Assembly: GCA_944350315.1 (NCBI GenBank)
Contig: CALVON010000001.1
Coordinates: 10,033 to 74,032, forward strand
DNA from: an uncultured Bacilli bacterium
Lineage (GTDB): Bacteria > Bacillota_I > Bacilli_A > RF39 > UBA660
Length of the DNA: 64,000 bases
Direction: 5' to 3'
Below the pieces are notes generated by a model that made no database searches, was not told where the DNA came from, and was given only the letters and a program-made list of their open reading frames with translations. Shown in pieces: positions 1 through 51,740 of the stretch; within the stretch, counting starts at the first letter, position 1; the number at the start of each line of letters is the position of its first letter. Both the position numbers and the translations under genes were made by a program.

Positions 1-86
1 GCAAATGTAGCTCCAATTATAGCTACTACTAAAGTTGCTACACCTATAACTCCATAAAAAATTCCTCTACCATTATTATTTTCCAC
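1..86 (-). CDS. N-terminal fragment of a CDS that runs off the left edge (hydrophobic signal/anchor segment)
   Basis: AGGAGG lies 8 nt upstream of a GTG at 86..84. It reads VENNNGRGIFYGVIGVATLVVAIIGATFA. Too short to appear in the ORF track. Confidence 0.3.
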   Translation of the reverse strand, partial: MENNNGRGIFYGVIGVATLVVAIIGATF

Positions 87-171: not shown

Positions 172-1941
172 TTAATTAATATAATTTTCAGATACTATAG
201 GTACTTCCGTCTTATCTGAATTAGTAAGACCCATAGTAGGGAAAATAATATCATTATTTTCTTCTGTAACTTGTTTCAATTTTGATAATACATTTGTAGG
301 CTTAACAGTTCCAATATTTTTTATTTCTGGAAGTGAAGAATCTTTATCATCTTTATCAACATTTTTATCAGTAATTTCAAATTCATTATCATCTAAAAAT
401 GGATCTACTTCCTTAAATAAATCAATATCTTCATTATCTTTAGGCTCATCAATAAATATTTCTGCAGGAATAGAAATATCTTGATTTGATGGTATATTTA
501 CCTTTATTTCTCCATCTTCTATATCATCATCAGTAAAAATATCTTTTGTACTTAATTCAACCCCCACGCTATTAGTATTTTCAATAGCTGTGTCCAAAAC
601 ATCTTGTTTCTTTTCTTCTTCCAATTTTTCATCTGCTTCTTTTAATTTATCTCTTTTAGCACTAAATTTTTTAGGTTCTAAAACAATAACAACTTTTTTC
701 ATAACAAGCTTAGCTATATCACTAGCAGCCTTAACATCAATTTTAACCGGTTCTTTTACTTTAACAACTAAATTAGCAGGCTTAGAAGCAGTATCTTTTT
801 CAACATCATCATCTTTTAAAATAATATCGTCATTATTATCATCTATATTATCATTATCTTTATTAATTGAAAATTCATTTAATAAATCTACTATTTCTTG
901 TCTATTATTACTTCCTTCTAATTCTTCTAATCTATCTTCATAATTTGAAATTTCTAATATTAACTTATCAATATTTTCAATATTAAATTTTTGAGATTTA
1001 ATAATGTTCAAATGCTCTTTGCATATATTAGAAAAATATTCTAACATATCTCTATCTTTTATAGATAACTCTTTTCTATCAGTAGCTCTATCCTCAAGTA
1101 ATTTTTCGATTTTCAATCTTTTATCATACAACTTATCATAATCCGTTATTTTATCTAATACCAATTTATAAATATTCAAAATATAGTTTTTTTCTAAACA
1201 TGCATAGTAATCTTCTTTGGCATCTTGTACATATGATAAATATTCTTCTCTCTCAGCACCACTTATTCCTGAAACACTAAGTGCATCATAAGAAGAAATA
1301 AAAGTATTCATTACTTCTCTTTTATCAATAATAGAAGTATTAATTTTCTCTAATTCTAAATCAATATCCAAATAATTCAAATTTTTGTAATATTCGTCAT
1401 TGATAATTACCTTATTAAATTCTTCAACTAATTCTTCTTCTAATTTATTATTTATTATCTCATTATTAGACTTATTTTCATATTTTTCTTCTAATTCACG
1501 TCTTTTTTCATCAAGTGTTCTTTTTATAGAATTAATTTCTTGAACGTTTGATAAATAATCAGATATGTTATCCAATCTTAATTTATAATCAGGCAAATCA
1601 TCTTCTTCTAATACCCTATCAATACTATCTAAAAAATTACCTGTAACATTTAAATAATCATCAATAAATTTGTTTCTTTCATCAATTCTATCCTCTATAC
1701 ATTTTATTAAATCAATTAATCTCTCTTTTTCCTCTTCTAAAGTAGTAGTTGTATACATCTTACTAGCTAATTTTTCTTCATATAATTTTCTTCTATAGGC
1801 ATCAATTTGAATTGCCGTATCCTCATACTCTTTTAACATATCACTTCTATTTTTAAAATTACCAAGCATAATACTCATACGTAATATTTTAAATTTTTTT
1901 TCTAAAATAGAATCTTTATCGACAAAAATTTGCTTTATCAT
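172..1941 (-). CDS. Acidic coiled-coil protein with no TM segment; last gene of the F1-like ATPase array
   Basis: 589-aa ORF with a GGAGGTG RBS before the ATG at 1941 and a 15-nt gap to the gamma-like gene. Composition is heptad-like and E/K/D/L/I-rich, with a very acidic C-terminal third. No family recognised. Confidence 0.6.
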   Translation of the reverse strand: MIKQIFVDKDSILEKKFKILRMSIMLGNFKNRSDMLKEYEDTAIQIDAYRRKLYEEKLASKMYTTTTLEEEKERLIDLIKCIEDRIDERNKFIDDYLNVTGNFLDSIDRVLEEDDLPDYKLRLDNISDYLSNVQEINSIKRTLDEKRRELEEKYENKSNNEIINNKLEEELVEEFNKVIINDEYYKNLNYLDIDLELEKINTSIIDKREVMNTFISSYDALSVSGISGAEREEYLSYVQDAKEDYYACLEKNYILNIYKLVLDKITDYDKLYDKRLKIEKLLEDRATDRKELSIKDRDMLEYFSNICKEHLNIIKSQKFNIENIDKLILEISNYEDRLEELEGSNNRQEIVDLLNEFSINKDNDNIDDNNDDIILKDDDVEKDTASKPANLVVKVKEPVKIDVKAASDIAKLVMKKVVIVLEPKKFSAKRDKLKEADEKLEEEKKQDVLDTAIENTNSVGVELSTKDIFTDDDIEDGEIKVNIPSNQDISIPAEIFIDEPKDNEDIDLFKEVDPFLDDNEFEITDKNVDKDDKDSSLPEIKNIGTVKPTNVLSKLKQVTEENNDIIFPTMGLTNSDKTEVPIVSENYIN

Positions 1942-1956
1942 ACATACACCTCCAAA

Positions 1957-2721
1957 TTACAATAATTTTTTAAAGTTTTCAACACTCTTTAGTATACTTT
2001 TTTCTTTCTTAGACTTTATTTCTTCATGCTTCATTTCTTCTTCTCTTTCTTTAATTTTATCAAGTGCTGAAGATGTAATCTGACTTCTTAAAACATTCTC
2101 AGCCGCATATGATATACTTTCACACATTTTTAATTCATAACAAATATAAAATGTCATTAAACTTCCTAATATTTGATCAACATTTGTCTCCATCACAAAA
2201 TCTTCGCCCTCATAATACTCCCCTTTAAATTCGACAGGAAACAACTGAATTTTAACAAATTCAAAAGAAGTCAAAGAATAAAAATGATTATAATATACAT
2301 TAATTTCACTATAATTTTGTGATATTATTGCTTCATCAATACATCTTTCAATCTCTACAAATCTCTTAAAGAAATCATCTTTATTAATTTTTAATAAAAT
2401 TTTATCATCTCTATAATTTATTTTTTTCCCAATTATAATTTTATAACAATCAAGATCTTTCTTTATTTGTCTACTAATCGAAGAATTGAAATTACCACAA
2501 AAACCATAATCATTAGCTATATATATATTTAGCTTAGGTTTATTTTTATCTGGTATCAATATTTTTTTATCTAAGATTAAATTTTTATTATACATAATTC
2601 TTGATAAAATATCAGTAATTTCTTTACCAACATTTCTATATTTTTCAGCATCTTTTAAAGCTTTATCCATTTTAAGAAGTGCTTGGAAGTTCATAACTTT
2701 AACAACATTTTTAATTTTCAT
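1957..2721 (-). CDS. F1 ATPase gamma-subunit-like protein (divergent)
   Basis: 254 aa. The N-terminal helix (MKIKNVVKVMNFQALLKMDKALKDAEKY) and C-terminal helix (ISYAAENVLRSQITSSALDKI) resemble the two AtpG coiled-coil helices (ITKAM.MVAA.K and ASE..AR..AM..AT.NA). GGGAGG RBS. Confidence 0.55.
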   Translation of the reverse strand: MKIKNVVKVMNFQALLKMDKALKDAEKYRNVGKEITDILSRIMYNKNLILDKKILIPDKNKPKLNIYIANDYGFCGNFNSSISRQIKKDLDCYKIIIGKKINYRDDKILLKINKDDFFKRFVEIERCIDEAIISQNYSEINVYYNHFYSLTSFEFVKIQLFPVEFKGEYYEGEDFVMETNVDQILGSLMTFYICYELKMCESISYAAENVLRSQITSSALDKIKEREEEMKHEEIKSKKEKSILKSVENFKKLL

Positions 2722-2733
2722 GAAATTCCTCCC

Positions 2734-3273
2734 TTATAATCTTTTATAATTTTTTTTCTTTAAAATCTCCTGATTAATCACAATATTATTTAAAAGTTTA
2801 AATGTAATATATGTAAAATATAAAAATATAAATATAATTACTAAACCTAATATTATTAGTAAAAAAATTGACGTATGTTTATCTATCAGATAATTATATA
2901 TCATACTACTAACATAAATACACAAAGAATTAATTGCGCAAAATAACAAATCAACAGGAATTCTTTTATACATTTTAGATACAATATCTGAACCAATCAT
3001 AAAGAAAACCATAATCAGTATATATATATAATTAAGTCCAGAAAAAGTAGCTGTTGCCCATATTAAAAATATATAATTAAGGGTAAGTAGACTAAATGAT
3101 AAAATTGACCTATTATTCATTCCTAAAAATAAACCATAAAATTTAACTTTATTTGTTTTTACATTATAATTTTTTAAAGTTAACTTAAAAGTAATTGCTA
3201 ATATTATCAAAAATATTAAAGCTACAAATAAGAAATTAACTACATTGCCTAATATATCAATACTTTTATTCAT
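2734..3273 (-). CDS. Polytopic membrane protein (about 5 TM helices), unknown family, inserted between the epsilon-like and gamma-like genes
   Basis: 179 aa and hydrophobic throughout. I could not find the a-subunit type conserved Arg (LRL..N) motif. Confidence 0.55.
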   Translation of the reverse strand: MNKSIDILGNVVNFLFVALIFLIILAITFKLTLKNYNVKTNKVKFYGLFLGMNNRSILSFSLLTLNYIFLIWATATFSGLNYIYILIMVFFMIGSDIVSKMYKRIPVDLLFCAINSLCIYVSSMIYNYLIDKHTSIFLLIILGLVIIFIFLYFTYITFKLLNNIVINQEILKKKNYKRL

Positions 3274-3274
3274 T

Positions 3275-6217
<2,943 letters not shown>

Positions 6218-6218
6218 A

Positions 6219-6983
6219 TTATACATTCCTTTCACTTAAACTAAAATCATATACCTTATTTCTATATATAATTTTAATACCCCTGTATATTTTATCATTG
6301 AATACTGTATTAATGTATTCACTTAGATGATCATAATTTTCACTCTTATTTCCAACCAATATTGTAATTTTTGGATTATTTAAATCTACTAATTGATCTA
6401 AGTACCCTATAAAATTATCAACGCTCTTTTCACTTACTACAAGGCAAAAAGCTTCATATACCTTATATTCTTTACTATTAAGCATTTTTTTAATTTTTTC
6501 GTCTTGTTCCAAAGACGTCATACTCTTAAGCTCATATATAACATCACTAGTAAACTTACCCCTCAAATTAAGACAAAATTCATAATTTTTATTTTCATCA
6601 CATAAAGATAAAAAGTCTTTAATCAATTCTTCATAATTAACTACAAAATTATCATCAATAAATTTATTAACCTCTAATAAACTTTTATCCTGATATTTAG
6701 CACTATTAAGTAGTTCAATTATATTCGTATCAAAAGCAATTTTTTTATCCTCTTTATTACTATTATCTTCTTTTATTCCCTTTTCTTTATTCTTAATTAA
6801 TTCATCAATTTCTAATAGTTTATTTTCCTTCTCAGTAATTAAATCATCATAACCTTGAAGTTTATTTATAAAATAAGACTTAGTTTGAGAATTAACAATT
6901 CCAACCGTCTTCTTTAATATCATAAACATTAAAAACACAAGAAAAGTAATAATCAAACTAACAATAATAAATAACGTTACCAT
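6219..6983 (-). CDS. Single-TM coiled-coil protein, candidate fused b/delta-like stator subunit
   Basis: 254 aa with an N-terminal TM (LFIIVSLIITFLVFLMFMIL) followed by a charged helical stretch. The C-terminal end (ITILVGNKSE...IYRGIKIIYRNKVYDFSLS) is reminiscent of the delta/OSCP C-terminus (..liGG..v.vgd.viD.S). It sits where atpF-atpH sit in canonical operons. Confidence 0.45.
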   Translation of the reverse strand: MVTLFIIVSLIITFLVFLMFMILKKTVGIVNSQTKSYFINKLQGYDDLITEKENKLLEIDELIKNKEKGIKEDNSNKEDKKIAFDTNIIELLNSAKYQDKSLLEVNKFIDDNFVVNYEELIKDFLSLCDENKNYEFCLNLRGKFTSDVIYELKSMTSLEQDEKIKKMLNSKEYKVYEAFCLVVSEKSVDNFIGYLDQLVDLNNPKITILVGNKSENYDHLSEYINTVFNDKIYRGIKIIYRNKVYDFSLSERNV

Positions 6984-6984
6984 T

Positions 6985-7297
<313 letters not shown>

Positions 7298-7301
<4 letters not shown>

Positions 7302-8029
7302 TTGCTTTTATATAATACACTTAAATTATAAGGTTTACTAAGCAATACTTTATCATTAAATGACATAAAATATCTTTCTGTTAAATTTACATTTATATAT
7401 TCTGAAGTAACACTGACATTTTTTCCCTCTACCTCTATTACTTCACTAAAATCGTTTGCATAATCATAATATACTAAAGTATTATTGCCAACCACTGATA
7501 CATAAGAACCACCGCTAAGCTCTTTATATAAAACATCATTAATTAACAAGTTGGCATCATATGGAAAGAAAAATAAATCTTCTCCATCATACATAAAGAA
7601 ATATTCATAAAATGAAGAATCAGTACCATTTTTAATACTATGAATACTATCGTCATTAATATAACTTGCATACTTATAAATACGATATTGGCTTCCTTCT
7701 CTTAAAGGAAAAGCTACAATCATTTCCTGTGGAAATATTACTTCTAATCTATCTTTATAATATATTGGCGTCGAATCATAATCTATTTTTTTATCTTTTG
7801 CTTTAATATCGACAATTTTCTCTTTCATGTCATATGTAATTACTGCCGTGTATTCTGTTTTAATACCTCCAAAATACTGATAAACTAAAGTGTCTCGTTT
7901 ATCTCTATAATTATCATATTGATATTCCCTATATAGAAAATAAAGGGTAATAAGTAACCCAAATACAACAATTATTGGTATAAATATTTTATATTTTTCC
8001 TGAAAAATTTTTTTAATCTTATTACCCAT
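7298..8029 (-). CDS. Single-pass (N-terminal TM) extracytoplasmic protein, unknown family
   Basis: 243 aa with TM IFIPIIVVFGLLITLYFLY, then a beta-rich, Y/D/N-rich domain. GGGAGG RBS and a 2-nt gap to the upstream gene. Confidence 0.6.
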
Positions 8030-8031
8030 AA

Positions 8032-9471
8032 TTACCTCCCAAACTTAAACGAATAACTACTATTAATATCTATTGTTCCAAAACTTCCCAAAACATTAAC
8101 AACTGATAATTTTAATTGTGTATTTTTATCAATATTATAACCAGATATATCGAAGGTTCCCATAATATACTTCAAATTTTCTGAAACTATTAAATTATCA
8201 TCGATAGATGCACTTTTTTTAACAGTAGAACCATCTGTAGGATCCACTTCATAATAATCAAATGATAAATTGACTTTTATATTATCAACTTTATAGCCAC
8301 TTTCCAAATATACTTTATAAGTAATTGTGTTATTGACACTGCTAACTTTATACACCTCTATAGAATATTCTGGTTTTTTAGTTGTTACATTCATTTTGTC
8401 GAATGTATTTCTAATTATTTCTCCAGAATCATCTGCAGTAGTATAAACAAAACTTAATTCATACATCGTATCTGGAGCAAGATTATCAAAAACAACATGT
8501 GTATCATTTTTGGATAAATATATAACTTCTAATTTACCATCTTTTAGAATTTCAACATATACTGACTTGTATTCATTATAAGGATCATATACTACATAGT
8601 CGACATCTATTTGTGACAACCCAGAAGTAACTCTTACTACTGAAGTCATTTTTGTCTTATCTTTAATATCTTCTATATCACTATTATCATTTCCACTACC
8701 GCCATTATTAACAACACCACTTCCACTACCACCATTACTACCTACCTGATTATTACCACTACTATTACCAGCGCCATTATCAGTACCATCATCATCATCT
8801 TCTTCTTCAGGAACATATTGGTTTGTAGTACCTATAATTTTCTTTAAATCAATATCATAATTACCAAAATTAATAATTTCATTATTAATATCGAAACGAT
8901 ATTTTGCTGTAACTAAAATAGTTGGCGTAATTGTCTTTAAATTAACTTTATTGTTAGATAGTTTCGCATTTCCTAGTTTATCAAGTTCTACTAACAAATA
9001 GTTACTCGCCTGGACATTATTATCACTACTCTTAATCTCTCTATCAACTACTAAATATTCCCTATCGGCGAGTTTATAAAATTTTGTATTAGTAGTATTA
9101 GGTAAAATTGTTTCATCAACATTTTTAACAATTTTTCCGTCTTCTTGAATTTCATAAAAGTCGCCATATAATTTCAATGAACCTGTAATTTCATTATAGA
9201 CAATAACTTTTTTCCCTAAAGAAATTTCCTTATCTTGATAAACTAAATAATAATTATCGTTCCATCTTATTTTTAACTTTGCATCATCATCAACTTGTAT
9301 ATAATTTTTATCAGTATCTTGAATAATAGCTCCAGATTCAATTAAATATTCTACTTTTAATGCTTTTGTATACTTGTAAATAAACAAGGAGAAAACAAAA
9401 ACAACTAAAACCATTAAAATCAAAATAACTAAAAAACTTCTTTTATTCCTTATATCATATTTTCTCCTCAT
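8032..9471 (-). CDS. Single-pass surface protein: TM, membrane-proximal domain, acidic/Gly-Ser-Asn linker, FN3-like domains
   Basis: 479 aa with TM FLVILILMVLVVFVFSLFIY, linker EEEDDDDGTDNGAGNSSGNNQVGSNGGSGSGVVNNGGSGNDNSD, and an FN3-like signature DTMYELSFVY. GGAGGA RBS overlaps the stop of the giant gene. Confidence 0.65.
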   Translation of the reverse strand: MRRKYDIRNKRSFLVILILMVLVVFVFSLFIYKYTKALKVEYLIESGAIIQDTDKNYIQVDDDAKLKIRWNDNYYLVYQDKEISLGKKVIVYNEITGSLKLYGDFYEIQEDGKIVKNVDETILPNTTNTKFYKLADREYLVVDREIKSSDNNVQASNYLLVELDKLGNAKLSNNKVNLKTITPTILVTAKYRFDINNEIINFGNYDIDLKKIIGTTNQYVPEEEDDDDGTDNGAGNSSGNNQVGSNGGSGSGVVNNGGSGNDNSDIEDIKDKTKMTSVVRVTSGLSQIDVDYVVYDPYNEYKSVYVEILKDGKLEVIYLSKNDTHVVFDNLAPDTMYELSFVYTTADDSGEIIRNTFDKMNVTTKKPEYSIEVYKVSSVNNTITYKVYLESGYKVDNIKVNLSFDYYEVDPTDGSTVKKSASIDDNLIVSENLKYIMGTFDISGYNIDKNTQLKLSVVNVLGSFGTIDINSSYSFKFGR

Positions 9472-9479
9472 TTTTCCTC

Positions 9480-12400
9480 CTAATTGTTATTTTCCATATC
9501 TTTAACATAAGCAACACTTGCTGTAAATGATGGATTATATGCTGCTGTTAAATTAACTAATTTTTCTGGATCATTAGGATCTTTAACATCAAAACTAAGT
9601 GTTATTAAATAATACATTCCTTCAGTATTTTTAATACCATCATTTCTCGTTATTACATACATCCCATATCCTGATTCATCATTAAATTCAAATTTATTTT
9701 TATCACCAATCGTATCAGTACCACTTACAATAAGACCACCATTAAATTCATCATCTAAACTGATAGAATAATTAACATTGACTACATTATCAAAGTTAGT
9801 ACCACTTCTAAATAACACAATATAACTATTATCTGTAATAACATAAGAAATATCATGTCCAAATGTTACCCCATAGCTATCAGTAGTATAAATAGAATGA
9901 CTTCTGCTAACTTCATAAGTTCTATCTTCTTTTGGTATATCTTGACTATAATTATTAACATAAGCATCACTATATACCATAATAGAATATTTTGTATCGG
10001 CATCTAAATCAGTAATTCTAATTTTTTTATTAACTACCAAAGCATCAAATTCATAATTTTCATATTCCTCAATATCAACATATGTCCCGTCGCTACTAAC
10101 TTCCTGCAAAGTACCAACAATATCACCGGATGAATTAACTAATTTTACAAAATATTTACCATTTACTATAGTTCTATCTAAATCATTAACATTAATTGTA
10201 AAATCAATAAAATATTTTCCATCTTCGTATCCCGCTTTTCTAGTCACTACAAATGATGGTTCTCTTAATGCCGTTAACTTAAATATTCTATCTTTACTAG
10301 GTATTAAATTAACATACTGTCTTCCCTCTACATAATCACCATTAACATCTTTTTCATACAAAGATGCTACTGCATATATAAAAATGTAATAATTTTTATT
10401 ATATTCTAAATCATACTTTGTAATATCTTCTTGACTAACAATTGTACTACTAACATCTCCATCAAGAATTTCTTTTTTGAATATATATCCAGAATCTTTT
10501 GTACATGTATTATCTTCACATATCATGTACATAACATCAAAATTGTAAGGATAATTATTTTGATATCTTGTTAAATTAATCTTAGTATTAAGTATTCTAT
10601 TTCCATATATCGTATCGTCTACTTGATAAGTAACTTCTCTATTCGTATATAAACTTTCCCCATTTTTTGTTCCAAAAGAATAAGTTTTTGTTTCATAGCT
10701 ATCTCTTACACTCTCATCAAATAATTGTGTAAATTCATATTTACCATTTTTATATAAATAAGCATAAACATTAAAGTAATATTTTTCACTACTTGTTACT
10801 GAAGCTACACCATCAATAACCGCTTCATATGTTTTATTAGGATTATCAACATCTACTTTAATTTTTACTCTAGGTCTAACAATAGAACTAACATCATGAT
10901 TAAGAGCATCATTTTCATTTTTCCAAACATCAATATATAAATAATATTCTCCGTCTTCATTTTTTATATCATTTAAATCAAGGCCAGATATTGAAAGAGC
11001 CATTACAGAGCCATTAATCAAACTTGTCCTTTGACTAACACTAACTTTAGGGGTAATACTACTAAATGAAAATGTATTATTATCGCACTTCATAGTATCT
11101 ACAGAAATCATTTTTGGATTAAGAATACCATAACTAGAATTATATCCTAAACTAGATAACCCTATATTATTAATGTTATTATAATTATTATTATTCATCA
11201 TACTTTTATAGAATAAAGACGTTCTTTCAGCATTATTAAATGAATAAGTATAATAACCTTTAGTAACATTTAATTCTTCACTCCACAAAGATATCTTTCC
11301 ATTTTTATCAAACGAAATATACTTACCATATTCTGATGTGTTATTATTTTGCATTATCATATATTGGTAGTCCTTACCATCACCAACTGTATAATCATAA
11401 CCAGTAAGTCCATTATCATATAAAGCCTCAATCGTAACTGAAATTATATTTGTCTTGTCAACACTAGATTGCATACCTGCATTTTTTAAATCGATATAAT
11501 CAACAGAAAAGCATCTAGCCTCATTATCAGAAGCAGCACATTTAGATAATTGCCATAATTCTTTATTTAATTCATTACCTAAAGAATCTTTAAATTTAAC
11601 TCTATAACTAACAACTCGATTTAATATTTCTTCACTAGCTAATAATTTAATTGTCACTTTATTGTCAGTAAGTGGATTATTAATAATTTCATACTCAAAA
11701 TTATATATTTCATCATTTGCATCATAAAAACCATCAAATAATACTACACCTTCATCCTTACCATCTAAATAATTAACCACATCATCATCTATTACACCAG
11801 TATTTTTAATATTCTTCTTATAGTATAGTTGATAAGTATCGTTATTATTAAGTCCTGACACTATAATATCACCACTATATTCTTTATTGCCAGTAGAACT
11901 AATAGATAATTTTTGTTCAATCCCACCATTAACTTTATAATAAAAGCCATAATCAACATCGCTGCTTTCTCTATATAAAGCATTATCAGGATCAGTAATT
12001 ACATATCTATATGTAATACTATTAGCATCTGATTTAGCAATATACATTCCTACTTTAGGAGTTTCCTTAGTTGTATAATCAGTCTTTTTATATACTCCAT
12101 AATCAGATGGTGAATCTGCATTATTACTTGAAGGATATAAACTACTTCCAGAATCAGAACTAACTTCAATTTCATAACCTACATAATAACTATTGCCTCT
12201 TACCATCGTCAAACTAGTAGTTCCATATTCAATTCCATAATCCATATACACTTCAGTAAGGTAATTTCCTATTTCTAAATCGCTTATTGACTCACTTATC
12301 TTATCTACTAAAACTAATTCATCAGAATCGTTCTTTATATAAAATTTTACTTTATTAAAGTTCTTATCATACACATATATATTTATCTTCTGTGGCATTA

Positions 12401-15212
12401 ACCCATTAGCAACTAAACCTCGACGATCATATACAGCATTAACCGTATAACCAACAACTGTTCCCGAATCATTAAGTTCATCAAAAAGATTTGCAGAAAG
12501 TCCATTAGTTATTTCATTTACAATAATAATAGGCTCTTCAACATTATCAAGAAGTAAAGACTCAAGAATATTATAAACCATTACATTATTCTCAATTTTT
12601 ACCTCATTCGTTTCTTCTAAATCATAATAAGCTCTTATCATGATTGTATATTCTGGGCTTAACTTTCCATCTTCACCTAAACTCTTTAAGGTATCAATAT
12701 CTAACCCAAAAGTTCCATCAGTAGTAATTGTATAATAATTATCATAAAACATTTCTTTTAAATTAACTGTCTCACTACTTGTAAATACAACAGGCGCTAT
12801 TAATGGATCCTGAGATTTAACATCATCTAAATGATTTCCCTCATATAAACTAATTACTACTTTTTTAATTGCTGCCACTGACTCTTCTGGTGATAAACTA
12901 CCGATATTATTTTTTGATGCCTCCAATTTCACTCTTTGATTAACTACATGATTTGCACTACTTAAAAGTTTATCTTCAGCCGGATAAATAGCCATAAAAC
13001 TAGACAATGTTTTTGTAGAAATATTTCTCTTTGAATCATCTGTATGCATAATTTCTACTCTTTGTTGATCCGCATCATCATTTAAAATAGCACTTACTTC
13101 AATCGTATATTGTGTTCCTTCTTGAAGACCATCAACAAATAAGTCATATTTAATCTCATCATTTACAATTTCAAAATCAGCCACAAAAGATTTAACAATA
13201 ACCTCTCCATTTACAGAATTTTTCTTAATAGTAATTACTGTACTACTATTTTCACTAGCACAACCTTCTCTATTTGGCATACTAACCAAACAACTATTAT
13301 CTGTTAAATAAATTGTCGCTCCTATAGTATTATAGCTTATTAATTCTTCTCTAGGAACAACCGTAACATAAGGGTCACTACCCATTACAAAATTAATTCT
13401 ATCACTTGTTGTATATTCAACATACTTTTCATTATCATAGTATTCAATAACAACTTTATAAAAATAATTTGTATCATTTTTTAATTCATTTTCTCCATTA
13501 CCTACTTTAATTTCTATTGGAGATGCATTCGTCTTAGTAATAGGATTTATTACTAACTTATCTGGATTATCATTTTCATAAACCAAATAAGTATAACTTG
13601 TAATTGCATTATCTGGATCTATTATATTTCCAAGAGATAATTTAAAACTTCCAGAAGCTAAATCTTTATTCGCTTCCATATCACTAAAACTAGGTGTTTT
13701 CTTTAAAGTCATTGAAGTAAGCGTTATATTGTAAACATCTTTAAAATTAGAAGATTCTACAGAAAATTCATCTAAAACAGCTGTATAAATTGTATTACTA
13801 TCTAATCCATCAAATACAATCTCACCATTTTTATCTATATCACTAAGCCATACTACCTTCTCTATATATTTAATTTCACCAGTTGCTCCATCTACATAAC
13901 TAGTCTTAACCACTTCGTTTTGATGAGTTTCTTCATTAAATTTATACAAAGACAATTTTGCATTAGTTATATCTGTTTCTTCATCAACATTAATTTTATA
14001 TCCTATCTCACTATCAGTAGCATACGTTCTTTCTAAACTTATACCAAAATCATTTGTCTCAAATATCTTCTGAAAATATTTTCCATCATCTTTCTCATTA
14101 ATCACCGTAAACAAATATCTCGTTTTAGGAGATAACAAATTAACGTTTATTTCTACATCTTGTAATACTTGAGCTGTCATGTCTACTGTTCTTCCTGTGT
14201 CCATATTAGTAACTTTTAACATAAATCTATCATCTTGTGTATTATTCATAATATCAAAAATTACTGAAACACTAGTACTACTAACAGTAGCTTTTTTTAA
14301 AGAAATAATAATGTCTTCAACATCATCTGGATTAATGCCCTCTCCAGAACCAGTTCCACTACCGTCACCATCTTCTAAATCACCATTGCCATTTTGATCA
14401 TCGCCTGGTGTCTGTACATTACCACCTGTTTCATCATCATTAGGCTTATTATCATCATCTTTATCATCAATAGGAATTATTTCGACATTCTCATTACCAT
14501 CGATAGTTATCTCTGTAATAGACATCACATCCTCATCATTTAAACTAATCTTCTTATCCCCTAAATCGATAATCAAATTATTAACATAAAATAATGTTTC
14601 ATCTGCTGCAACTTGATATTTAACATCCTTATTTTCTATATTGACAATTCCATCTTCAACATATACTATTTCAAAATAATCTCCCTCAATTAAAGATTCA
14701 TTACCAGGAATTTTAGCTTTAACATTACCAACAATAATATATTTATTATCACTAATTCTTCCCATAAAGTTATTAAGTTTAATATCGTTTTTACTACTTT
14801 CTATAACATAACTATCGCCATCTTTATCGATAATTGACTTATTAGTAATATTATAAAAAATAACTGTTCCACTACCCGTCACTGAATCAAGATCAAGTAT
14901 AGCCCCGTTTTTCAGAAATGATAAAGATCCATCCATATAATGAATAAAACTATCCTTAAGAACTGATACTTCATTATTATCAACATCAGTAAACTCAATC
15001 ATAGAAGATAAATTAGTCTTATAACTTGTACTTCCTTCAAAAAAATATTTTTCAACTTTCTCACTAAGAGGATTAAGTACATATCCGCTTTTAACAAAAG
15101 CATCATCACTATCATCAAATAAATATAATGCTCCAAATACTAATAAAATTAAAATAATTAGACTTAAAGATAAAATAAATAAAAACTTTCCATTAAACAT
15201 TTTTTTCATCAT
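9480..15212 (-). CDS. Giant (about 1,910 aa) N-terminally anchored surface protein with many FN3/Ig-like repeats
   Basis: TM FLFILSLSLIILILLVFGALYL and an acidic/Gly linker (DDKDDDNKPNDDETGG...GDGSGTGSGEG). At least 8 recurrences of the FN3 F-strand-like signature [DNKG]T.Y.[FILY].[VI]: KTRYLFTVI, NTIYTAVL, DTNYFYKVVI, GTQYTIEV, DTYQLYY, KYYFNVYAY, KNYYIFIYA, DTKYSIMVY. No LPXTG or C-terminal TM. The ATG at 15212 lies 6 nt after GAGG; the ORF track starts at the GTG inside the RBS. Confidence 0.8.
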   Translation of the reverse strand: MMKKMFNGKFLFILSLSLIILILLVFGALYLFDDSDDAFVKSGYVLNPLSEKVEKYFFEGSTSYKTNLSSMIEFTDVDNNEVSVLKDSFIHYMDGSLSFLKNGAILDLDSVTGSGTVIFYNITNKSIIDKDGDSYVIESSKNDIKLNNFMGRISDNKYIIVGNVKAKIPGNESLIEGDYFEIVYVEDGIVNIENKDVKYQVAADETLFYVNNLIIDLGDKKISLNDEDVMSITEITIDGNENVEIIPIDDKDDDNKPNDDETGGNVQTPGDDQNGNGDLEDGDGSGTGSGEGINPDDVEDIIISLKKATVSSTSVSVIFDIMNNTQDDRFMLKVTNMDTGRTVDMTAQVLQDVEINVNLLSPKTRYLFTVINEKDDGKYFQKIFETNDFGISLERTYATDSEIGYKINVDEETDITNAKLSLYKFNEETHQNEVVKTSYVDGATGEIKYIEKVVWLSDIDKNGEIVFDGLDSNTIYTAVLDEFSVESSNFKDVYNITLTSMTLKKTPSFSDMEANKDLASGSFKLSLGNIIDPDNAITSYTYLVYENDNPDKLVINPITKTNASPIEIKVGNGENELKNDTNYFYKVVIEYYDNEKYVEYTTSDRINFVMGSDPYVTVVPREELISYNTIGATIYLTDNSCLVSMPNREGCASENSSTVITIKKNSVNGEVIVKSFVADFEIVNDEIKYDLFVDGLQEGTQYTIEVSAILNDDADQQRVEIMHTDDSKRNISTKTLSSFMAIYPAEDKLLSSANHVVNQRVKLEASKNNIGSLSPEESVAAIKKVVISLYEGNHLDDVKSQDPLIAPVVFTSSETVNLKEMFYDNYYTITTDGTFGLDIDTLKSLGEDGKLSPEYTIMIRAYYDLEETNEVKIENNVMVYNILESLLLDNVEEPIIIVNEITNGLSANLFDELNDSGTVVGYTVNAVYDRRGLVANGLMPQKINIYVYDKNFNKVKFYIKNDSDELVLVDKISESISDLEIGNYLTEVYMDYGIEYGTTSLTMVRGNSYYVGYEIEVSSDSGSSLYPSSNNADSPSDYGVYKKTDYTTKETPKVGMYIAKSDANSITYRYVITDPDNALYRESSDVDYGFYYKVNGGIEQKLSISSTGNKEYSGDIIVSGLNNNDTYQLYYKKNIKNTGVIDDDVVNYLDGKDEGVVLFDGFYDANDEIYNFEYEIINNPLTDNKVTIKLLASEEILNRVVSYRVKFKDSLGNELNKELWQLSKCAASDNEARCFSVDYIDLKNAGMQSSVDKTNIISVTIEALYDNGLTGYDYTVGDGKDYQYMIMQNNNTSEYGKYISFDKNGKISLWSEELNVTKGYYTYSFNNAERTSLFYKSMMNNNNYNNINNIGLSSLGYNSSYGILNPKMISVDTMKCDNNTFSFSSITPKVSVSQRTSLINGSVMALSISGLDLNDIKNEDGEYYLYIDVWKNENDALNHDVSSIVRPRVKIKVDVDNPNKTYEAVIDGVASVTSSEKYYFNVYAYLYKNGKYEFTQLFDESVRDSYETKTYSFGTKNGESLYTNREVTYQVDDTIYGNRILNTKINLTRYQNNYPYNFDVMYMICEDNTCTKDSGYIFKKEILDGDVSSTIVSQEDITKYDLEYNKNYYIFIYAVASLYEKDVNGDYVEGRQYVNLIPSKDRIFKLTALREPSFVVTRKAGYEDGKYFIDFTINVNDLDRTIVNGKYFVKLVNSSGDIVGTLQEVSSDGTYVDIEEYENYEFDALVVNKKIRITDLDADTKYSIMVYSDAYVNNYSQDIPKEDRTYEVSRSHSIYTTDSYGVTFGHDISYVITDNSYIVLFRSGTNFDNVVNVNYSISLDDEFNGGLIVSGTDTIGDKNKFEFNDESGYGMYVITRNDGIKNTEGMYYLITLSFDVKDPNDPEKLVNLTAAYNPSFTASVAYVKDMENNN

Positions 15213-15249
15213 ACACACCTCTTATATCTTACTACACTATACTATGAAA

Positions 15250-15278
15250 ATTATATCATTTACGAAATATTATGTCAA
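15250..15278 (-). promoter_or_regulatory. Consensus sigma-A promoter (TTGACA-17-TATAAT) for the giant-protein/ATPase array
   Basis: The minus strand reads TTGACA (15278..15273), a 17-nt spacer, then TATAAT (15255..15250), about 35 nt upstream of the start codon. Confidence 0.6.
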
Positions 15279-17408: not shown

Positions 17409-17857
17409 TTTTTTACCCACCATGTCCCAATAAGTAACAACACTACTCCTGAAACTATAAAAGTATCAGCTAAATTAAATATAGGATAATTCCAATCAAA
17501 AATATTTAAATCAATAAAATCAATAACATATCCGCAAAAAATTCTATTAAAGAAATTTCCTAAAGCTCCCCCCAAAATTAACGAATAAGATAATTTCTCA
17601 AAAAATTTTAAAGAATTACTTTTATATATATAATAAATAAGCGCAATTATAATTAAAAGTGATACAAATATTATAAAAAAAGTATTTGAAGCAAAAATAC
17701 TCCAAGCAGCTCCTGTATTTTTCACATATGTCAATTTAAATAAATTATCTATAACTACTATACTTTGATTAAAAATCATAAATTCACTAACTAAATACTT
17801 ACTAACTATATCTAATAACAAAAACAATAAAGTAAAACCAATTATCAATTTAAACAC
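17405..17857 (-). CDS. lspA: Lipoprotein signal peptidase II
   Basis: NTGAAWS, GGALGNFFNR, VIDFID and FNLAD motifs in a 4-TM, 150-aa protein. Confidence 0.85.
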   Translation of the reverse strand: MFKLIIGFTLLFLLLDIVSKYLVSEFMIFNQSIVVIDNLFKLTYVKNTGAAWSIFASNTFFIIFVSLLIIIALIYYIYKSNSLKFFEKLSYSLILGGALGNFFNRIFCGYVIDFIDLNIFDWNYPIFNLADTFIVSGVVLLLIGTWWVKK

Positions 17858-18324
17858 CCCTCTGGTAAATTACTAATTACACCACTTGACTTAAGACAAT
17901 CAAAATCATCTTTTTCTATTTTATAGTAATATACGTAATCTTCATCACGATATACTGACACTTTTGCAGACACATCACATGTTACATCCTCATTATTAGG
18001 ATTTACCAAATCACTAACCGTCATTGGCTTATATGTAGAATTTATAACATCATCAAATGTAATATCATTTGCCTTATAAATTTTTACCCCTAATTTATGA
18101 GTCTTATCAATAGAACAAACTTCTTCATTGTATGATAATTTCTTAGCATCACTATCTAAATATATCTTCATGGCATCTTTAATACTATCTATAAAAACAT
18201 CCTCTGTTTTACCTTTAGCATTTTCTAAATTAAATATTCCACTGGCTAACACAATACCCATAACTATTGCTAAAATAACCAAGGTTGCCAACAACTCAAC
18301 TAATGTAAAACCTTTTTTATTCAT
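17845..18324 (-). CDS. Type IV pilin / pseudopilin-like protein (prepilin-type N-terminus)
   Basis: MNKKGFTLVELLATLVILAIVMGIV shows the G|FTLVE cleavage/methylation motif with Glu+5. AGGTGA RBS before the ATG at 18324. The ORF-track N-terminal extension is unsupported. Confidence 0.7.
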   Translation of the reverse strand: MNKKGFTLVELLATLVILAIVMGIVLASGIFNLENAKGKTEDVFIDSIKDAMKIYLDSDAKKLSYNEEVCSIDKTHKLGVKIYKANDITFDDVINSTYKPMTVSDLVNPNNEDVTCDVSAKVSVYRDEDYVYYYKIEKDDFDCLKSSGVISNLPEGCLN

Positions 18325-18461
18325 TTCATCACCTGTCAATAAAATTATACCATTTTTTATTATAATTATCAAATATTTTATTAAAACCGGATATATTATA
18401 GCCCTCACTAGACAAATTATCTATTTTAAGATAAAATAACTATTAAAGAAGGGATAATTAT

Positions 18462-22007: not shown

Positions 22008-23327
22008 ATGAAAAAATTAAATATACAAAAAGTTTTCTGGTTCATAAGCTTCCTATTCATTTTATCATGTTGTATTTTTTATGGTACCAGATTTCTTAAA
22101 CTATACTTAGAAAATAAGAAAGTAGAAATTAAAGAAGAAAATTCTCTAATAAAAGTAATAAGAGAAAATAATGCTGAAAATAAAAACTTTCAAATAGTTA
22201 ATGGCCAAAATTATTTTACCAATAACGATACAAACAACTATTTAGAATATTCAAACATCATGTGGCGAATTATTAAAGTAAATAGTGATAATTCAATTAC
22301 TGCAATTGCTGATAATTCACTAACGTCACTAGCTTTTGGTAAAAATTTAAACTATGAAGATTCACAAATTAATAAATGGCTAAATAATTTTGATGAAGAA
22401 TATACTGGAATTTTAGAAAATTCTCTAAACGAAGTTGAAACATATCTTCAAAAAACATCTACTTGTATAGATACATATAATGAAATAACTAATACTCCAT
22501 GTAGTAATACTACTGAAAAATATTATCTAAGTCTACTCTCAATAGCAGACTACTTAAATATTGGAAGCAAAGACAGTTATCTAAATAATGATGAATTTTA
22601 TTATTTAAGCAGTACAAATGATGAAAACAAAATTTGGTACATTAATGATGATGGTGAAGTATCATCTAATAGTGGAACTGATATATTAGGAATAAAACCA
22701 GTTATAACAATCAAAGCTAACATTGACTATGTAAGTGGTGATGGAACAAAAGATAATCCATATAAAATAGAAAAAGAAAATAATTTATTTGGAGCATATG
22801 TTAAACTTGATGATGATATTTGGAGAATATATCAAGTAAATGAAACAGAAGTAAGATTAATGTTGAATAATTACCTTCAAGTATCTGGAAATAATCTAAC
22901 ATACAACTATTCTAAAAAAACATCATATTATGATGATTATAGTTATGGTTCTATTGCTTATTATTTGAATCACACATTCTTAAACTCTTTATCATATAAA
23001 GATAAAATAAAAGAAGTGTATTGGCCAAATGGATACTATAATAGCGATAATAATTATGACTACACTACCGCATTAAATAGTGAAATAAATAGCAAAGTAG
23101 CCCTAATGAGCATAGGAAATATTTTTCTAAATAGTGACCTAACAAATTATTCTACTATGACAGGATCTATAGAAAAAGGAAATTACATCTATGTTATGCA
23201 ATCATCAAATAAAATATATACCAGAAATATTTCTGGAGAATCAAATATTATACCTACTATTAGTATTGAAAAAGAATTATTAACAAAAGGTAATGGAACG
23301 TATGATAACCCATACGAAATGGAGTAA
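22008..23327 (+). CDS. N-terminally anchored extracytoplasmic protein with two repeats ending in G[DN]GT.DNPY
   Basis: 439 aa with TM VFWFISFLFILSCCIFYG. Repeat ends are SGDGTKDNPYKIE and KGNGTYDNPYEME. Family not recognised. Confidence 0.6.
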   Translation: MKKLNIQKVFWFISFLFILSCCIFYGTRFLKLYLENKKVEIKEENSLIKVIRENNAENKNFQIVNGQNYFTNNDTNNYLEYSNIMWRIIKVNSDNSITAIADNSLTSLAFGKNLNYEDSQINKWLNNFDEEYTGILENSLNEVETYLQKTSTCIDTYNEITNTPCSNTTEKYYLSLLSIADYLNIGSKDSYLNNDEFYYLSSTNDENKIWYINDDGEVSSNSGTDILGIKPVITIKANIDYVSGDGTKDNPYKIEKENNLFGAYVKLDDDIWRIYQVNETEVRLMLNNYLQVSGNNLTYNYSKKTSYYDDYSYGSIAYYLNHTFLNSLSYKDKIKEVYWPNGYYNSDNNYDYTTALNSEINSKVALMSIGNIFLNSDLTNYSTMTGSIEKGNYIYVMQSSNKIYTRNISGESNIIPTISIEKELLTKGNGTYDNPYEME

Positions 23328-36982: not shown

Positions 36983-37326
36983 ATTATCTTATAAGCCACA
37001 TTCTGTACCGTAATTGGTGACAAACATTTATCTATGAGTTTCCTCATCCATCTTTTAGATTCTTCTTCTCCAAAGATAGTTCCCCTACCATAATTTGGGT
37101 TTCTCGCTTGTGGGGTTTACCTCGTTTCACCCTAATTATTTCTAATTAGATCGTCTCTGTGGCACTTTATATTCATTTAATCATAGTCTCCCGTAGATTA
37201 AACAAATGCCGTCAGTAAAACTGCCTTAGATTATTTTTTCTCTAAGCACAAACACTACTACCATCACAGATAGTGCGAGTGTGGACTTTCCTCTAAATAA
37301 CAATATCCAGCGTTTGTCCAGATAAC
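36983..37326 (-). ncRNA. rnpB: RNase P RNA (type B, Firmicutes-like)
   Basis: The minus strand contains GAGGAAAGTCCAC (CR-I), AGTGCCACAGAGACG, GGTAAACCCCACAAGCGAGAAACCCAAATTATGGTAGGGGAAC and ACAGAATGTGGCTTAT (CR-V). The P1 ends GTTATCT/AGATAA pair. It is a GC-rich, ORF-free gap next to gpsB, as in B. subtilis. End coordinates are approximate (plus or minus 5 nt). Confidence 0.9.
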
Positions 37327-50123: not shown

Positions 50124-51740
50124 TTATTTTTCTATTAATACACTTCTAGTACCAATCATTGGACTACCCATACTAATATCTCCAAAATAGAATAATGCTT
50201 TATCTTTACCCCCTCTAATTATATAATCTCTATTACTCATAATTGAATTACCATTATACCAAGTATTTCCATCACTTAAAATTACTTCTTTAGTAGCACT
50301 ACCTATATTATAATTACCATATACATATTCTGATAAAGAACCAGCCATATCATATACTCCATATACATTTCTAGTAGTAGTATCTTGTTTATCATCTCCA
50401 GTAATATAACTACTATTTACTGATATACTAGAACATCCATCTATAGAACATACTCCATATTTAGAATGTGATAAATATAATGTAGCTCCCCATTCTAAAT
50501 TATTAACTATATGACTTTCTACTTTATCCCCTAAATTATAACTATTACTAAGACTACTAGTTATATTTTGATAATTAACTAATGTATCATTAGCATATCC
50601 CTCTACTAAAGGTATACTTAAATAATTATCATTATTTTTACTTATTTCATATTTATTAATCCAAAATCCCGTTAAATCATTTCCAAATACTGGATGAGTA
50701 ATATACATATCATTACTATACTTATTAGCTATTACTGTACTATTTAATTTATTTTCAAATATAATATCTATTCCATTATCATAAGCATTATAACTATCAT
50801 CTACTAAATCCATTGCATTCCATAATTTATATCTATATCTAGGTATCCATACATAGTATGCAAGTATATCTTCACTATTAATCTTCATTCCTACAGTAGT
50901 ATATACATTATTTTTAACAACTACTGCATTAGCCCATTTCTGATTATTATAATCATACCATAAATTATCTTTATTACTATTCTCCCTATCAGCTACTACC
51001 CATGAACCATTACTATATACAATAGGTACCATATTATCATATAAAATTGGTCTATTAGCACAAGAAGTATCATAATTAGCTACTCTTGTATATTCTTTCT
51101 TAGCCCCTCCATATAAAGCAATAAATACTTTCATCTTCATCTTACTATTAGCTATATTACTTTGATCTATCAAAGTACAAGTAGTTAAATCATCACAACT
51201 CTCACTTATCCACATAATTAATGTATATTTATCATAATCTTCATTATATTTAGGTAAATCTTCTTGAATAGTAGTAAGTCTATAATTATCTTCTAATATA
51301 CTACCATCAAATTCTGGAGATAAATTACCAGAAGATAATAATTTCCCATTCTTATATAAATTCCATTTAGTATATTCATTTAATAAAGAACAATCTATTT
51401 CCATATCACTTAACATAACATCATATATTAAATCTTCTTCTTTATTAGTAGATACTCCTCTTAAAGAAAACTCTAATCTAATAACATTATCTTTAGTATT
51501 TATATTTATATATTCATCACTAATAGGTTCTAATCCATTAAAAGAAATATCTTCATCTCCAACATATTCTACATTATATTCTCCCCCAGTAATTAATGTT
51601 TGTGTTCTATCATTAAGTAATTTAGAAGTAGCAAAAGTAATTCCCCCTATTCCTAATACAATAACTAATATTTCAAATACTATTACTAAAATATTTTTAT
51701 TCTTAAATCCCTTTATCTTTTTATCTTCATCCATAATCAC
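50124..51740 (-). CDS. Paralogous FGE-sulfatase-like domain protein without a VR
   Basis: It shares LWYDYNNQKWANAVVV, ILAYYVWIPRYRYKLW, ITHPVF, NLEWGATLYLSHSKYG and GVYDMAGSLSEYVYG with the 600-aa protein. Its C-terminus (IIRGGKDKALFYFGDISMG...) has no match to the TR. Confidence 0.7.
   Translation of the reverse strand: MIMDEDKKIKGFKNKNILVIVFEILVIVLGIGGITFATSKLLNDRTQTLITGGEYNVEYVGDEDISFNGLEPISDEYININTKDNVIRLEFSLRGVSTNKEEDLIYDVMLSDMEIDCSLLNEYTKWNLYKNGKLLSSGNLSPEFDGSILEDNYRLTTIQEDLPKYNEDYDKYTLIMWISESCDDLTTCTLIDQSNIANSKMKMKVFIALYGGAKKEYTRVANYDTSCANRPILYDNMVPIVYSNGSWVVADRENSNKDNLWYDYNNQKWANAVVVKNNVYTTVGMKINSEDILAYYVWIPRYRYKLWNAMDLVDDSYNAYDNGIDIIFENKLNSTVIANKYSNDMYITHPVFGNDLTGFWINKYEISKNNDNYLSIPLVEGYANDTLVNYQNITSSLSNSYNLGDKVESHIVNNLEWGATLYLSHSKYGVCSIDGCSSISVNSSYITGDDKQDTTTRNVYGVYDMAGSLSEYVYGNYNIGSATKEVILSDGNTWYNGNSIMSNRDYIIRGGKDKALFYFGDISMGSPMIGTRSVLIEK

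Follow-up and report, generated by a model that had tools for sequence, protein, structure and literature searches.

An F-type ATPase gene cluster without ion-coupling residues is linked to giant surface-protein genes in uncultured gut Bacilli

To what use could a cell put the torque of a rotary ATPase where no ion gradient is served, how might cytoplasmic ATP power proteins outside the cell, and where do the gliding and MIB-MIP motors of mycoplasmas come from? These questions are raised by a cluster of eleven open reading frames (ORFs) in an uncultured Bacilli bacterium (assembly GCA_944350315.1; GTDB lineage Bacillota_I; Bacilli_A; RF39; UBA660). The window, by which we mean the whole stretch of 64,000 nucleotides (nt) that was analysed, covers positions 10,033-74,032 of contig CALVON010000001.1. 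The cluster encodes alpha-, beta-, gamma- and c-like subunits of an F-type ATPase, candidate stalk and epsilon-sized proteins, a polytopic membrane protein, an acidic coiled-coil-rich protein and three single-pass surface proteins, one of them a giant of 1912 residues. It is conserved in relatives, its linkage to giant surface-protein genes reaches back to the deepest branches of the family, and both elements on which ion movement depends in all known F, V and A rotary enzymes are missing from it. We propose that the cluster encodes an ion-uncoupled F1Fo derivative which would work as an ATP-driven rotary motor coupled mechanically to the single-pass surface proteins, and we give this proposal about an even chance of being correct. 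No prior description of such a system was found in the searchable literature, subscription journals lying outside the coverage.

Relatives were sought in a scan of one genome per GTDB species. Beta relatives occur in at least 341 species representatives, and the best 80 of 341 stretches were fetched (64-92% beta identity). The loci with ATPase context that were read number 88 and comprise the 80 species loci, L081, the deep-branching L084 and L086-L088, and the near-identical contigs L089/L090; for L081 and L084-L090 precomputed Pfam matches were read.

The ATPase head and its membrane sector

The catalytic residues of a rotary F1 are present in the cluster. As read from the translations, beta retains the Walker A and B motifs, the catalytic Glu and an EELSEED loop, and alpha carries GDKKTGKT and the SVSR arginine; the presence of P-loops, catalytic Glu, Arg finger and DELSEED loop agrees with full-length PF00006 matches. 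The scores of these proteins on the models of ordinary subunits are low. Beta reaches 453 bits on the atpD model (TIGR01039; cut-off 462.85), on which ordinary AtpD gives 780-820, while alpha reaches 379 on the atpA model (TIGR00962; cut-off 484) and gamma 59.7 bits on TIGR01146 (cut-off 194). The best PDB matches of the ATPase subunits are the F1 enzymes of Bacillus, Caldalkalibacillus and Fusobacterium. For alpha, the best match is 6q45_A (305 bits), with residues 12-441 aligned onto residues 9-439 of 500; since the alignment begins at canonical residue 9, the N-terminal region is kept, and the C-terminal domain is about 60 residues shorter than the canonical one.

An epsilon-sized gene lies directly 3' of beta in all 79 loci where it was found. 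Its 85-residue product had no Pfam or PDB match by profile search, and hhalign of the family against epsilon gave the expected register at a non-significant level (E 0.19-0.65, a range that includes the runs of the 254-residue protein against delta; the E. coli and Bacillus delta and epsilon references were manually entered sequences). The protein would match the N-terminal beta-sandwich of epsilon only, without the C-terminal helices. Another arrangement was seen at L088:71-2179 (P0362), where beta has 702 residues, including a C-terminal extension of about 250 residues, and no separate epsilon-sized gene is called after it.

The membrane sector lacks what known enzymes use for ion transport. 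The c-like protein is recognised by PF00137 (33.9 bits against a cut-off of 24) and stays below every c-subunit equivalog cut-off, the best c-subunit model giving 42 against a cut-off of 71. In an alignment with the c subunits of Bacillus PS3 and E. coli, again manually entered references, V61 fills the column of the canonical Glu/Asp. No carboxylate was present in helix 2 among the homologues aligned, which cover 74 of the 80 fetched loci as well as the four deepest-branching relatives, and the column is hydrophobic throughout. The c-like protein is also the best-conserved protein of the cluster, with 95-96% identity where beta has 86-92% and a ratio of nonsynonymous to synonymous substitution rates (dN/dS) of 0.03-0.05, and it contains invariant DVV(H/Q/R) and GRNPETK motifs.

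Subunit a was not found in any of the 88 loci, a search that covered the ATPase context of each locus and in which neither the cluster nor the precomputed Pfam matches of L081 and L084-L090 contained ATP-synt_A, and these loci hold no conserved polytopic protein besides the 179-residue one, for which 4-5 transmembrane (TM) helices are predicted. The gene of this protein is present in 78 of the 80 species loci and evolves fast. We considered it as a divergent a-subunit and rejected the idea, since it has neither a conserved Arg nor a family signal. Across 28 homologues G47 is the sole invariant residue, no Arg or other charged residue is conserved, and Pfam, NCBIfam and PDB gave no signal for subunit a or AtpI.

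The peripheral stalk was approached through structure models, whose alignments were built from protein-search matches and are shallow. In the AlphaFold2 (AF2) model of the 254-residue protein encoded ahead of alpha (predicted local distance difference test, pLDDT, 73), the chain starts with a helix of 70 residues, TM segment included, which is followed by a helical bundle and then by a small beta domain. In a Foldseek search of the PDB, 26 of the 27 top matches of this model were delta/OSCP chains or mycobacterial b-delta fusions (best probability 0.87, E 0.06-1.2). Pfam and a PDB profile search returned no sequence-level match, and in the hhalign comparison with delta the expected motifs align at a non-significant level. 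At the level of the fold these results suggest, without proving it, a b-delta-type peripheral stalk.

An earlier, sequence-only reading of this DNA had named alpha-, beta-, gamma- and c-like subunits and had listed intact catalytic motifs in alpha and beta, all of which the Pfam matches and the translations bear out. Its b/delta-like subunit finds agreement in the fold matches, weak as their E-values are, and none in sequence searches; its epsilon-like subunit agrees in position and size, and not by any significant alignment; and its five TM helices in the polytopic protein become four or five. It had further held that the membrane part is not an Fo. The absence of subunit a and the carboxylate-less c agree with that statement, but a c proteolipid and a b-delta-type stalk appear to be kept, alpha retains its N-terminal region, and the membrane part is therefore, as predicted from the sequences of its proteins, a degenerate Fo and not a structure unrelated to Fo.

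Distribution of the family and linkage to surface-protein genes

Almost all of the best 80 loci come from metagenome-assembled genomes (MAGs) of gut or rumen, which bear the labels Bacilli, Tenericutes, Erysipelotrichaceae or Clostridium sp. CAG. Their carriers probably belong to the RFN20/RF39/ML615J-28 kind, that is, to uncultured gut orders related to Mycoplasmatales whose members are in part walled and in part wall-less, and poor in sortases. Thousands of copies of beta are present in the protein database, and one cluster alone is found on at least 1000 contigs. Among 1.84 billion representative proteins, four or five 50%-identity clusters belong to the beta family (566-612 bits), and the next F1 beta follows at 363 bits and at most 44% identity, which leaves a gap of about 200 bits. 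A neighbour-joining tree unites the family in a single clade with a long stem, separate from the clade of Mycoplasma mobile MMOB1670, and the most basal member of the family comes from a MAG labelled Mycoplasmatales. By its own account the sequence-only reading would have been contradicted by a nesting of alpha and beta inside ordinary AtpA/AtpD, or by homologous clusters of relatives that are never linked to the large surface-protein genes; in the tree beta is not nested among AtpD, and giant genes do accompany the clusters of relatives. The representative search also yielded further divergent clusters of F1 beta, namely P0367/P0400 (648-670 residues) and the P0370 group, which give 482-520 bits on the atpD model and in some cases have long extensions; these may be further atypical F-type families.

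The core genes are kept in all 80 species loci, and they occur in two orders. Near and middle clades have c - b/delta - alpha - beta - epsilon - TM - gamma. In the distant clade it is c - b/delta - alpha - gamma - beta - epsilon - TM, which is the canonical atp order without atpB, and gamma occupies the canonical slot between alpha and beta in the deepest clades as well. In 35-38 of the 80 loci (35 for the 479-residue protein, 38 for the 243-residue protein) the ATPase genes have the genes of the three surface proteins as neighbours, in near and distant clades alike. Near-clade loci encode the 243-residue protein upstream of c. Its gene in the distant clade stands directly after the 4-5-TM gene and overlaps it, and a second giant of more than 2800 residues follows. 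In the clade of the window the three surface genes are kept despite the rearranged order, and neighbours overlap or are a few bases apart.

The four deepest representatives (L084, L086, L087 and L088) likewise all have giant surface genes beside those of the ATPase. In the first three the order is giant - 500-690 residues - c - b/delta - alpha - gamma - beta - epsilon-sized - TM - 220-284 residues - second giant (up to >3450 residues), with no called gene in the TM position of L084; L088 begins at beta and contains the downstream half only. The distant clade shares this order, with proteins of about 500 and about 240 residues in the two flanking positions. As the linkage is found in the deepest branches and under two gene orders, it is ancestral and has survived rearrangement. 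One deep lineage has, in addition, a gene for a ParA/MinD-type ATPase (L086:9206-9979; PF13614, 1e-45) between gamma and beta.

Purifying selection was estimated for ten genes against three relatives. The dN/dS values range from 0.03 to 0.56 at saturated dS, being lowest for c, alpha, beta and the epsilon-sized gene (0.03-0.15) and highest for the acidic and the surface proteins. With such values in all ten genes, the cluster is not decaying.

The giant has its TM anchor at the N-terminus, after which come a juxtamembrane domain, a linker rich in acidic residues and Gly, and a long beta-rich region. The sequence-only reading had described it as N-terminally anchored and rich in FN3 domains; the anchor is confirmed by prediction, and the FN3-like signals are weak and sub-threshold. 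The 479-residue protein has a similar plan, with an N-terminal TM helix and a conserved juxtamembrane domain, followed by a Gly/Asp linker and a pair of FN3-like domains (weak, sub-threshold FN3 matches at residues 313-434, E 0.004-0.02). Of its 27 invariant residues, 21 fall within residues 27-217. The juxtamembrane domain is family-specific and common to the giant and the 479-residue protein (hhalign probability 92%, E 5.5e-7). The AF2 model of the 243-residue protein (pLDDT 91, predicted template modelling score 0.81) shows a TM helix and an all-beta ectodomain, which no fold in the PDB matched at better than E 0.1; sequence searches of Pfam and the PDB gave nothing either. Homology between the 243- and 479-residue proteins was considered and rejected. 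A 34%-identical homologue of the former also adjoins an ATPase cluster.

Other proteins of this kind are encoded around the ATPase genes of relatives. In 18 loci of the middle clade a different conserved single-pass protein of 245 residues is encoded directly upstream of the c-like gene; it occupies the same slot as the 243-residue protein, but it shows no detectable homology to it and was rejected as its homologue. A second, larger giant (2720 to >3450 residues, with an N-terminal TM helix) lies 3' of the ATPase cluster in the distant and deepest clades. GLUG motifs occur in one of these second giants, and an ALK/LTK glycine-rich domain (1e-33) is found in another that is shorter (L078).

At the other end of the cluster, only the N-terminal part of the 589-residue acidic protein is conserved. 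In 59 of the 80 loci a homologous region is encoded directly after gamma, in proteins of 54-735 residues in total length; profile search found none among the distant-clade loci (L065-L080). Next comes a twelfth gene, which the window edge truncates. It is complete in the near-identical contig L090 (L090:9029-9697, 222 residues), where unrelated housekeeping genes come after it, and its product begins with a long hydrophobic segment that ends in GATFAFF and resembles a SipW-type signal. The family to which it belongs, here called TFAYF, comprises proteins of 210-370 residues whose segment ends in GATFAYF, and is previously undescribed; SipW-signal matches are weak and limited to one member. One to seven tandem copies follow the ATPase genes in 42 of the 80 loci, and none is present in the distant and deepest clades, which retain the ATPase and the giants.

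The features are collected in Table 1. The eleven ORFs occupy 172-15218 of the minus strand in head-to-tail order, at intergenic distances of -17 to +64 nt, and the G+C content is about 25% across the window without a compositional break. The packing, coordinates and common direction given in the sequence-only reading are correct, and what has to be added to its eleven genes is the start of the twelfth. One N-terminal TM helix is predicted by hydropathy for each of the 1912-, 479-, 243- and 254-residue proteins, so the two smaller surface proteins are single-pass as had been stated; two are predicted for the c-like protein and none for the epsilon-sized, gamma and 589-residue proteins. Significant family matches in Pfam and NCBIfam were obtained for none of the 254-, 85-, 179-, 589-, 243-, 479- and 1912-residue products. 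Both promoter-like elements, already recognised as sigma-A promoters, match the sigma-70 consensus at 12 of 12 positions, each with an extended -10 TG. A terminator-like hairpin at 15305-15285 closes the upstream rhomboid gene. Within the cluster there is a single such hairpin (7183-7163), which falls in coding sequence and does not exceed chance expectation, in line with the earlier statement that the cluster contains no hairpin terminator.

Table 1. Features of the cluster (positions in the window) and related genes at other loci
Feature	Position	Strand	Basis or remark
Promoter-like P1	15250..15278	-	upstream of giant gene; TTGACA-17-TATAAT with TG; consensus match only
Giant surface protein, 1912 residues	9480..15218	-	ORF, TM residues 13-31
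479-residue single-pass surface protein	8032..9471	-	TM residues 13-31
243-residue single-pass protein	7298..8029	-	all-beta ectodomain (predicted)
Promoter-like P2	7272..7301	-	64-nt gap ahead of c-like gene; consensus match only
c-like proteolipid, 82 residues, 2 TM	6985..7233	-	PF00137, 3.8e-8
b-delta fusion-like stalk protein, 254 residues	6219..6983	-	AF2 fold; atpF-atpH position
Alpha-like subunit, 447 residues	4892..6235	-	PF00006, 2.7e-71
Beta-like catalytic subunit, 449 residues	3525..4874	-	PF00006, 2.4e-66
Epsilon-sized protein, 85 residues	3275..3532	-	position after beta, size
Polytopic membrane protein, 179 residues, 4-5 TM	2734..3273	-	TM prediction
Gamma-like central shaft, 254 residues	1957..2721	-	PF00231, 1.4e-25
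Acidic coiled-coil-rich cytoplasmic protein, 589 residues	172..1941	-	no TM, no family match
Twelfth gene, 5' start, cut by window edge	1..86	-	ribosome-binding site AGGAGG and GTG at 86; translation VENNNGRGIFYGVIGVATLVVAIIGATF
245-residue protein, examples	L031:6928-7665, L046:6924-7664, L059:6934-7668, and 15 other loci		
Second giant	L072:12847-21350, L067:12900-21347, L084:12773-20935, L086:13596-21608, L087:12040-20515		

The surroundings fit the host. The window encodes SspI (PF14098, 3e-18), Amidase_3 (2e-19), two LtaS-type sulfatase proteins, LspA and DivIVA, so that the wall and sporulation genes noticed earlier are indeed there. A class B RNase P RNA (36987-37325, minus strand, 272 bits) fits a Bacillota host. 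Two genes upstream of the cluster, and adjoining lspA and rluD, lies a prepilin-type (GFTLVE) ComG/GspG-like pseudopilin gene (17845-18408, minus strand). The window also contains three genes for large secreted or anchored proteins without known family (48248-50050, 50124-51740 and 22008-23327). Two of the three give a faint FGE-sulfatase-like C-terminal signal, and the product of the first has a GGTLAYW signal-like N-terminus and a weak match to the TFAYF profile (8e-06).

Proposed mechanism and rival explanations

In the motor that we favour, the parts retained from F1Fo would be a catalytically competent alpha3beta3 head with its gamma shaft, a short subunit of epsilon size, a peripheral stalk of the b-delta type and a c-type proteolipid. 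ATP hydrolysis would turn gamma/epsilon and the c-ring against a stator formed by the b-delta protein and the 4-5-TM protein. The torque would be taken up by the TM helices of the 243-residue protein, the 479-residue protein and the giant protein(s), and these single-pass helices might be packed against the c-ring or trapped inside it. Cytoplasmic ATP would in this way be turned into movement or conformational work of large extracellular structures, which could serve adhesion, surface motility or extension/retraction. What the sequences show is the make-up of the cluster, its conservation, the loss of ion-coupling residues and the linkage of the genes; that the complex rotates, that it touches the surface proteins and what it does for the cell are what we infer, as is the mechanical nature of the load, which follows from the want of an ion path. 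By analogy, this inference is supported by the ATP6AP1 and ATP6AP2 proteins in the V-ATPase ring and by the mycoplasma ATPases of Types 2 and 3.

Several points weigh against such a motor. About half of the 80 loci, the 18 with the 245-residue protein among them, have no giant, 479-residue or 243-residue genes within 10 kb, and therefore the motor in those genomes may have other partners or none of this kind, or the genes may lie elsewhere. A 12/12 promoter separates the surface-protein genes from the ATPase genes, so that each set may have its own regulation. The role of the 4-5-TM protein is unproven, the b/delta assignment is built on fold matches that are individually weak, and the identity of the epsilon-sized protein, equally unproven, is based on position, size and a non-significant alignment. 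Finally, the tree is a neighbour-joining distance tree of cluster representatives only.

These points have to be set against what other explanations can account for. One would be an enzyme that still translocates ions by an unconventional path, as an ATPase or synthase for the pH or membrane-potential homeostasis of a fermenter, with the 4-5-TM protein as a minimal a-subunit and H+ or Na+ carried by conserved polar residues of the c-like protein (D47, H50 and S/T near the start of helix 2) or by backbone sites. The F-type subunit set, with c-ring and stalk, is complete enough for this, the deep clades keep the canonical order from c to epsilon, the c-like protein has its invariant motifs, and the cluster could be the sole ATPase of its carriers. 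However, none of the homologues aligned has an acidic residue in the membrane span of helix 2, and the polytopic partner, with its single invariant residue and no conserved Arg or Lys, gives no signal for subunit a or AtpI in Pfam, NCBIfam or PDB. An extremely conserved c helix facing a fast-evolving polytopic partner is moreover the reverse of the pattern of an a/c interface, and the conserved flanking surface genes would be left unexplained. We regard an ion-translocating enzyme as quite unlikely. A somewhat better case, though still an unlikely one, can be made for an ATPase of export or assembly, which would serve the giants and/or the tandem TFAYF proteins in the manner of FliI/FliJ in type III export, or would assemble extracellular fibres. 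Genes of surface or secreted proteins do stand on both sides of the ATPase genes, including the one to seven tandem secreted-looking genes of 42 of the 80 loci, one of which is found in the window strain, and F1 and FliI share ancestry (FliI models give about 220 bits on beta). Yet the cluster has no export gate or channel component, its sole polytopic protein being 179 residues long, and the ordinary N-terminal TM anchors of the giants suit insertion by Sec/YidC. The distant and deepest clades do without TFAYF genes despite having ATPase and giants, and the build of a heterohexamer that has both a c-ring and a peripheral stalk suits rotation against a stator and not the threading of substrates.

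It is also conceivable, and in our view very unlikely, that the ATPase and surface genes are merely neighbours, the former encoding a soluble or membrane-tethered ATPase with a regulatory or housekeeping role, or being a slowly decaying relic of an ancestral atp operon, and the giants being unrelated adhesins. The loci without giants nearby, the separate perfect promoter ahead of the ATPase genes and the much faster evolution of the surface genes speak for this view. Against this stands a linkage that is kept across the deepest splits of the family and through a rearrangement of gene order, to the point that in the distant clade the 243-residue gene is embedded in the ATPase string and overlaps its neighbour; and strong purifying selection on every subunit, the membrane ones included, together with presence in at least 341 species, speaks against decay. 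The mechanically coupled rotary motor is favoured because these rivals fit the lost carboxylate, the absent channel component and the deep synteny less well.

The phenomenon concerns mostly gut-associated uncultured Bacilli, some of which appear walled and spore-forming. Public MAG records label beta as 'F0F1 ATP synthase subunit beta', and the stalk and 243-residue proteins as 'hypothetical protein'. With such labels, metabolic reconstructions may wrongly credit gut lineages with an ion-coupled ATP synthase.

Comparison with known rotary ATPases

Judged by sequence, the family is distinct from the canonical, N-type, Type 2 and Type 3 enzymes. With canonical F1Fo (Type 1; atpIBEFHAGDC) it shares homologous alpha, beta, gamma and c subunits, a putative delta/OSCP-like fold fused, in the model, to a b-like TM helix, and, in the deep clades, the order c - b/delta - alpha - gamma - beta - epsilon. 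It differs in having no a-subunit at the locus, a c without carboxylate, subunit scores under the equivalog cut-offs, a putative epsilon reduced to 85 residues, a C-terminally short alpha, and extra genes for the 4-5-TM, acidic and surface proteins. The N-ATPase (atpDCQRBEFAG) resembles it as an extra F-type operon of non-standard order with extra small membrane proteins. N-ATPases, however, keep subunit a and an ion-binding c, and the scores on their models are low (beta 419, alpha 349 and c 15.5, against cut-offs of 752, 750 and 131). For the postulated trapping of helices there is a parallel in the V-ATPase, where the single-pass proteins ATP6AP1/Ac45 and ATP6AP2/PRR, which have large extracytoplasmic domains, have their TM helices trapped inside the rotating c-ring. 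There is no homology between the two cases, the V-ATPase still pumps protons, and the arrangement suggested here is a proposal only.

Among the F1-derived ATPases of mycoplasmas, the Type 3 F1-like X0 (MSC_0618/0619) is required for MIB-MIP antibody cleavage (Beven 2012, Berlureau 2026). Its seven genes include those of a protein with 12 TM helices, of an 87-kDa membrane protein and of a 19-kDa protein of the cytoplasm; c and a stalk are lacking, and alpha is devoid of the N-terminal helix. In both systems F1-derived alpha, beta, gamma and epsilon go with non-Fo membrane proteins and are linked, at the level of genes, to surface proteins that need, or here would need, cytoplasmic ATP. In contrast to Type 3, the window cluster has c, the b-delta protein and the N-terminus of alpha, and its gene order and partner proteins are different. 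Among the cluster proteins no family match pointed to MIB-MIP, for which no specific search was made.

The Type 2 or G1-ATPase (MMOB1660/1670) drives the gliding of M. mobile via giant surface proteins. Its beta has a long N-terminal extension and the enzyme forms dimers and chains; its gene cluster encodes 12-TM and 2-TM proteins and no c-ring. Next to the Type 2 enzyme with Gli123, Gli349 and Gli521, the likeness lies in an F1-like rotary ATPase that is proposed to drive giant anchored surface proteins, in similar size classes of the partners, and in a GGAGVGKT P-loop and a DELSEED-like loop. By contrast, the window beta has 449 residues without an extension and stands outside the MMOB1670 clade. 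The gli genes of M. mobile are not known to be adjacent to its ATPase genes, whereas here giant genes flank the ATPase genes.

A special relationship to either mycoplasma type was considered and rejected, in agreement with the sequence-only reading, which had placed the module outside the described distribution of both. The Type 2 models give 350 for beta (MMOB1670, cut-off 850) and 378 for alpha (MMOB1660, cut-off 600), and the Type 3 models 397 for beta (MSC_0618, cut-off 570) and 314 for alpha (MSC_0619, cut-off 520). Ordinary AtpD reaches 485-500 on the Type 2 beta model and about 400-420 on that of Type 3; the scores of the family being no better than these, there is no detectable special kinship, and in the tree the family is a separate clade.

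Compared with Types 2 and 3, the family would represent a different evolutionary stage, in which the c-ring and the peripheral stalk are present and the ion path is gone. The farthest-reaching version of our proposal is that gut Bacilli related to Mycoplasmatales own a rotary engine in which F1 spins an ion-dead c-ring and passes its torque to the giants, and that this is at once a new machine of motility, adhesion or extension and a living intermediate on the way to the mycoplasma gliding motors; we put it forward tentatively and consider it somewhat doubtful. According to a proposal by the authors of a study in Sci Adv 2025, contact between an F1Fo ATPase and a membrane adhesin gave rise to the gliding motor. 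The present family looks like that stage, with the remnants of Fo still attached.

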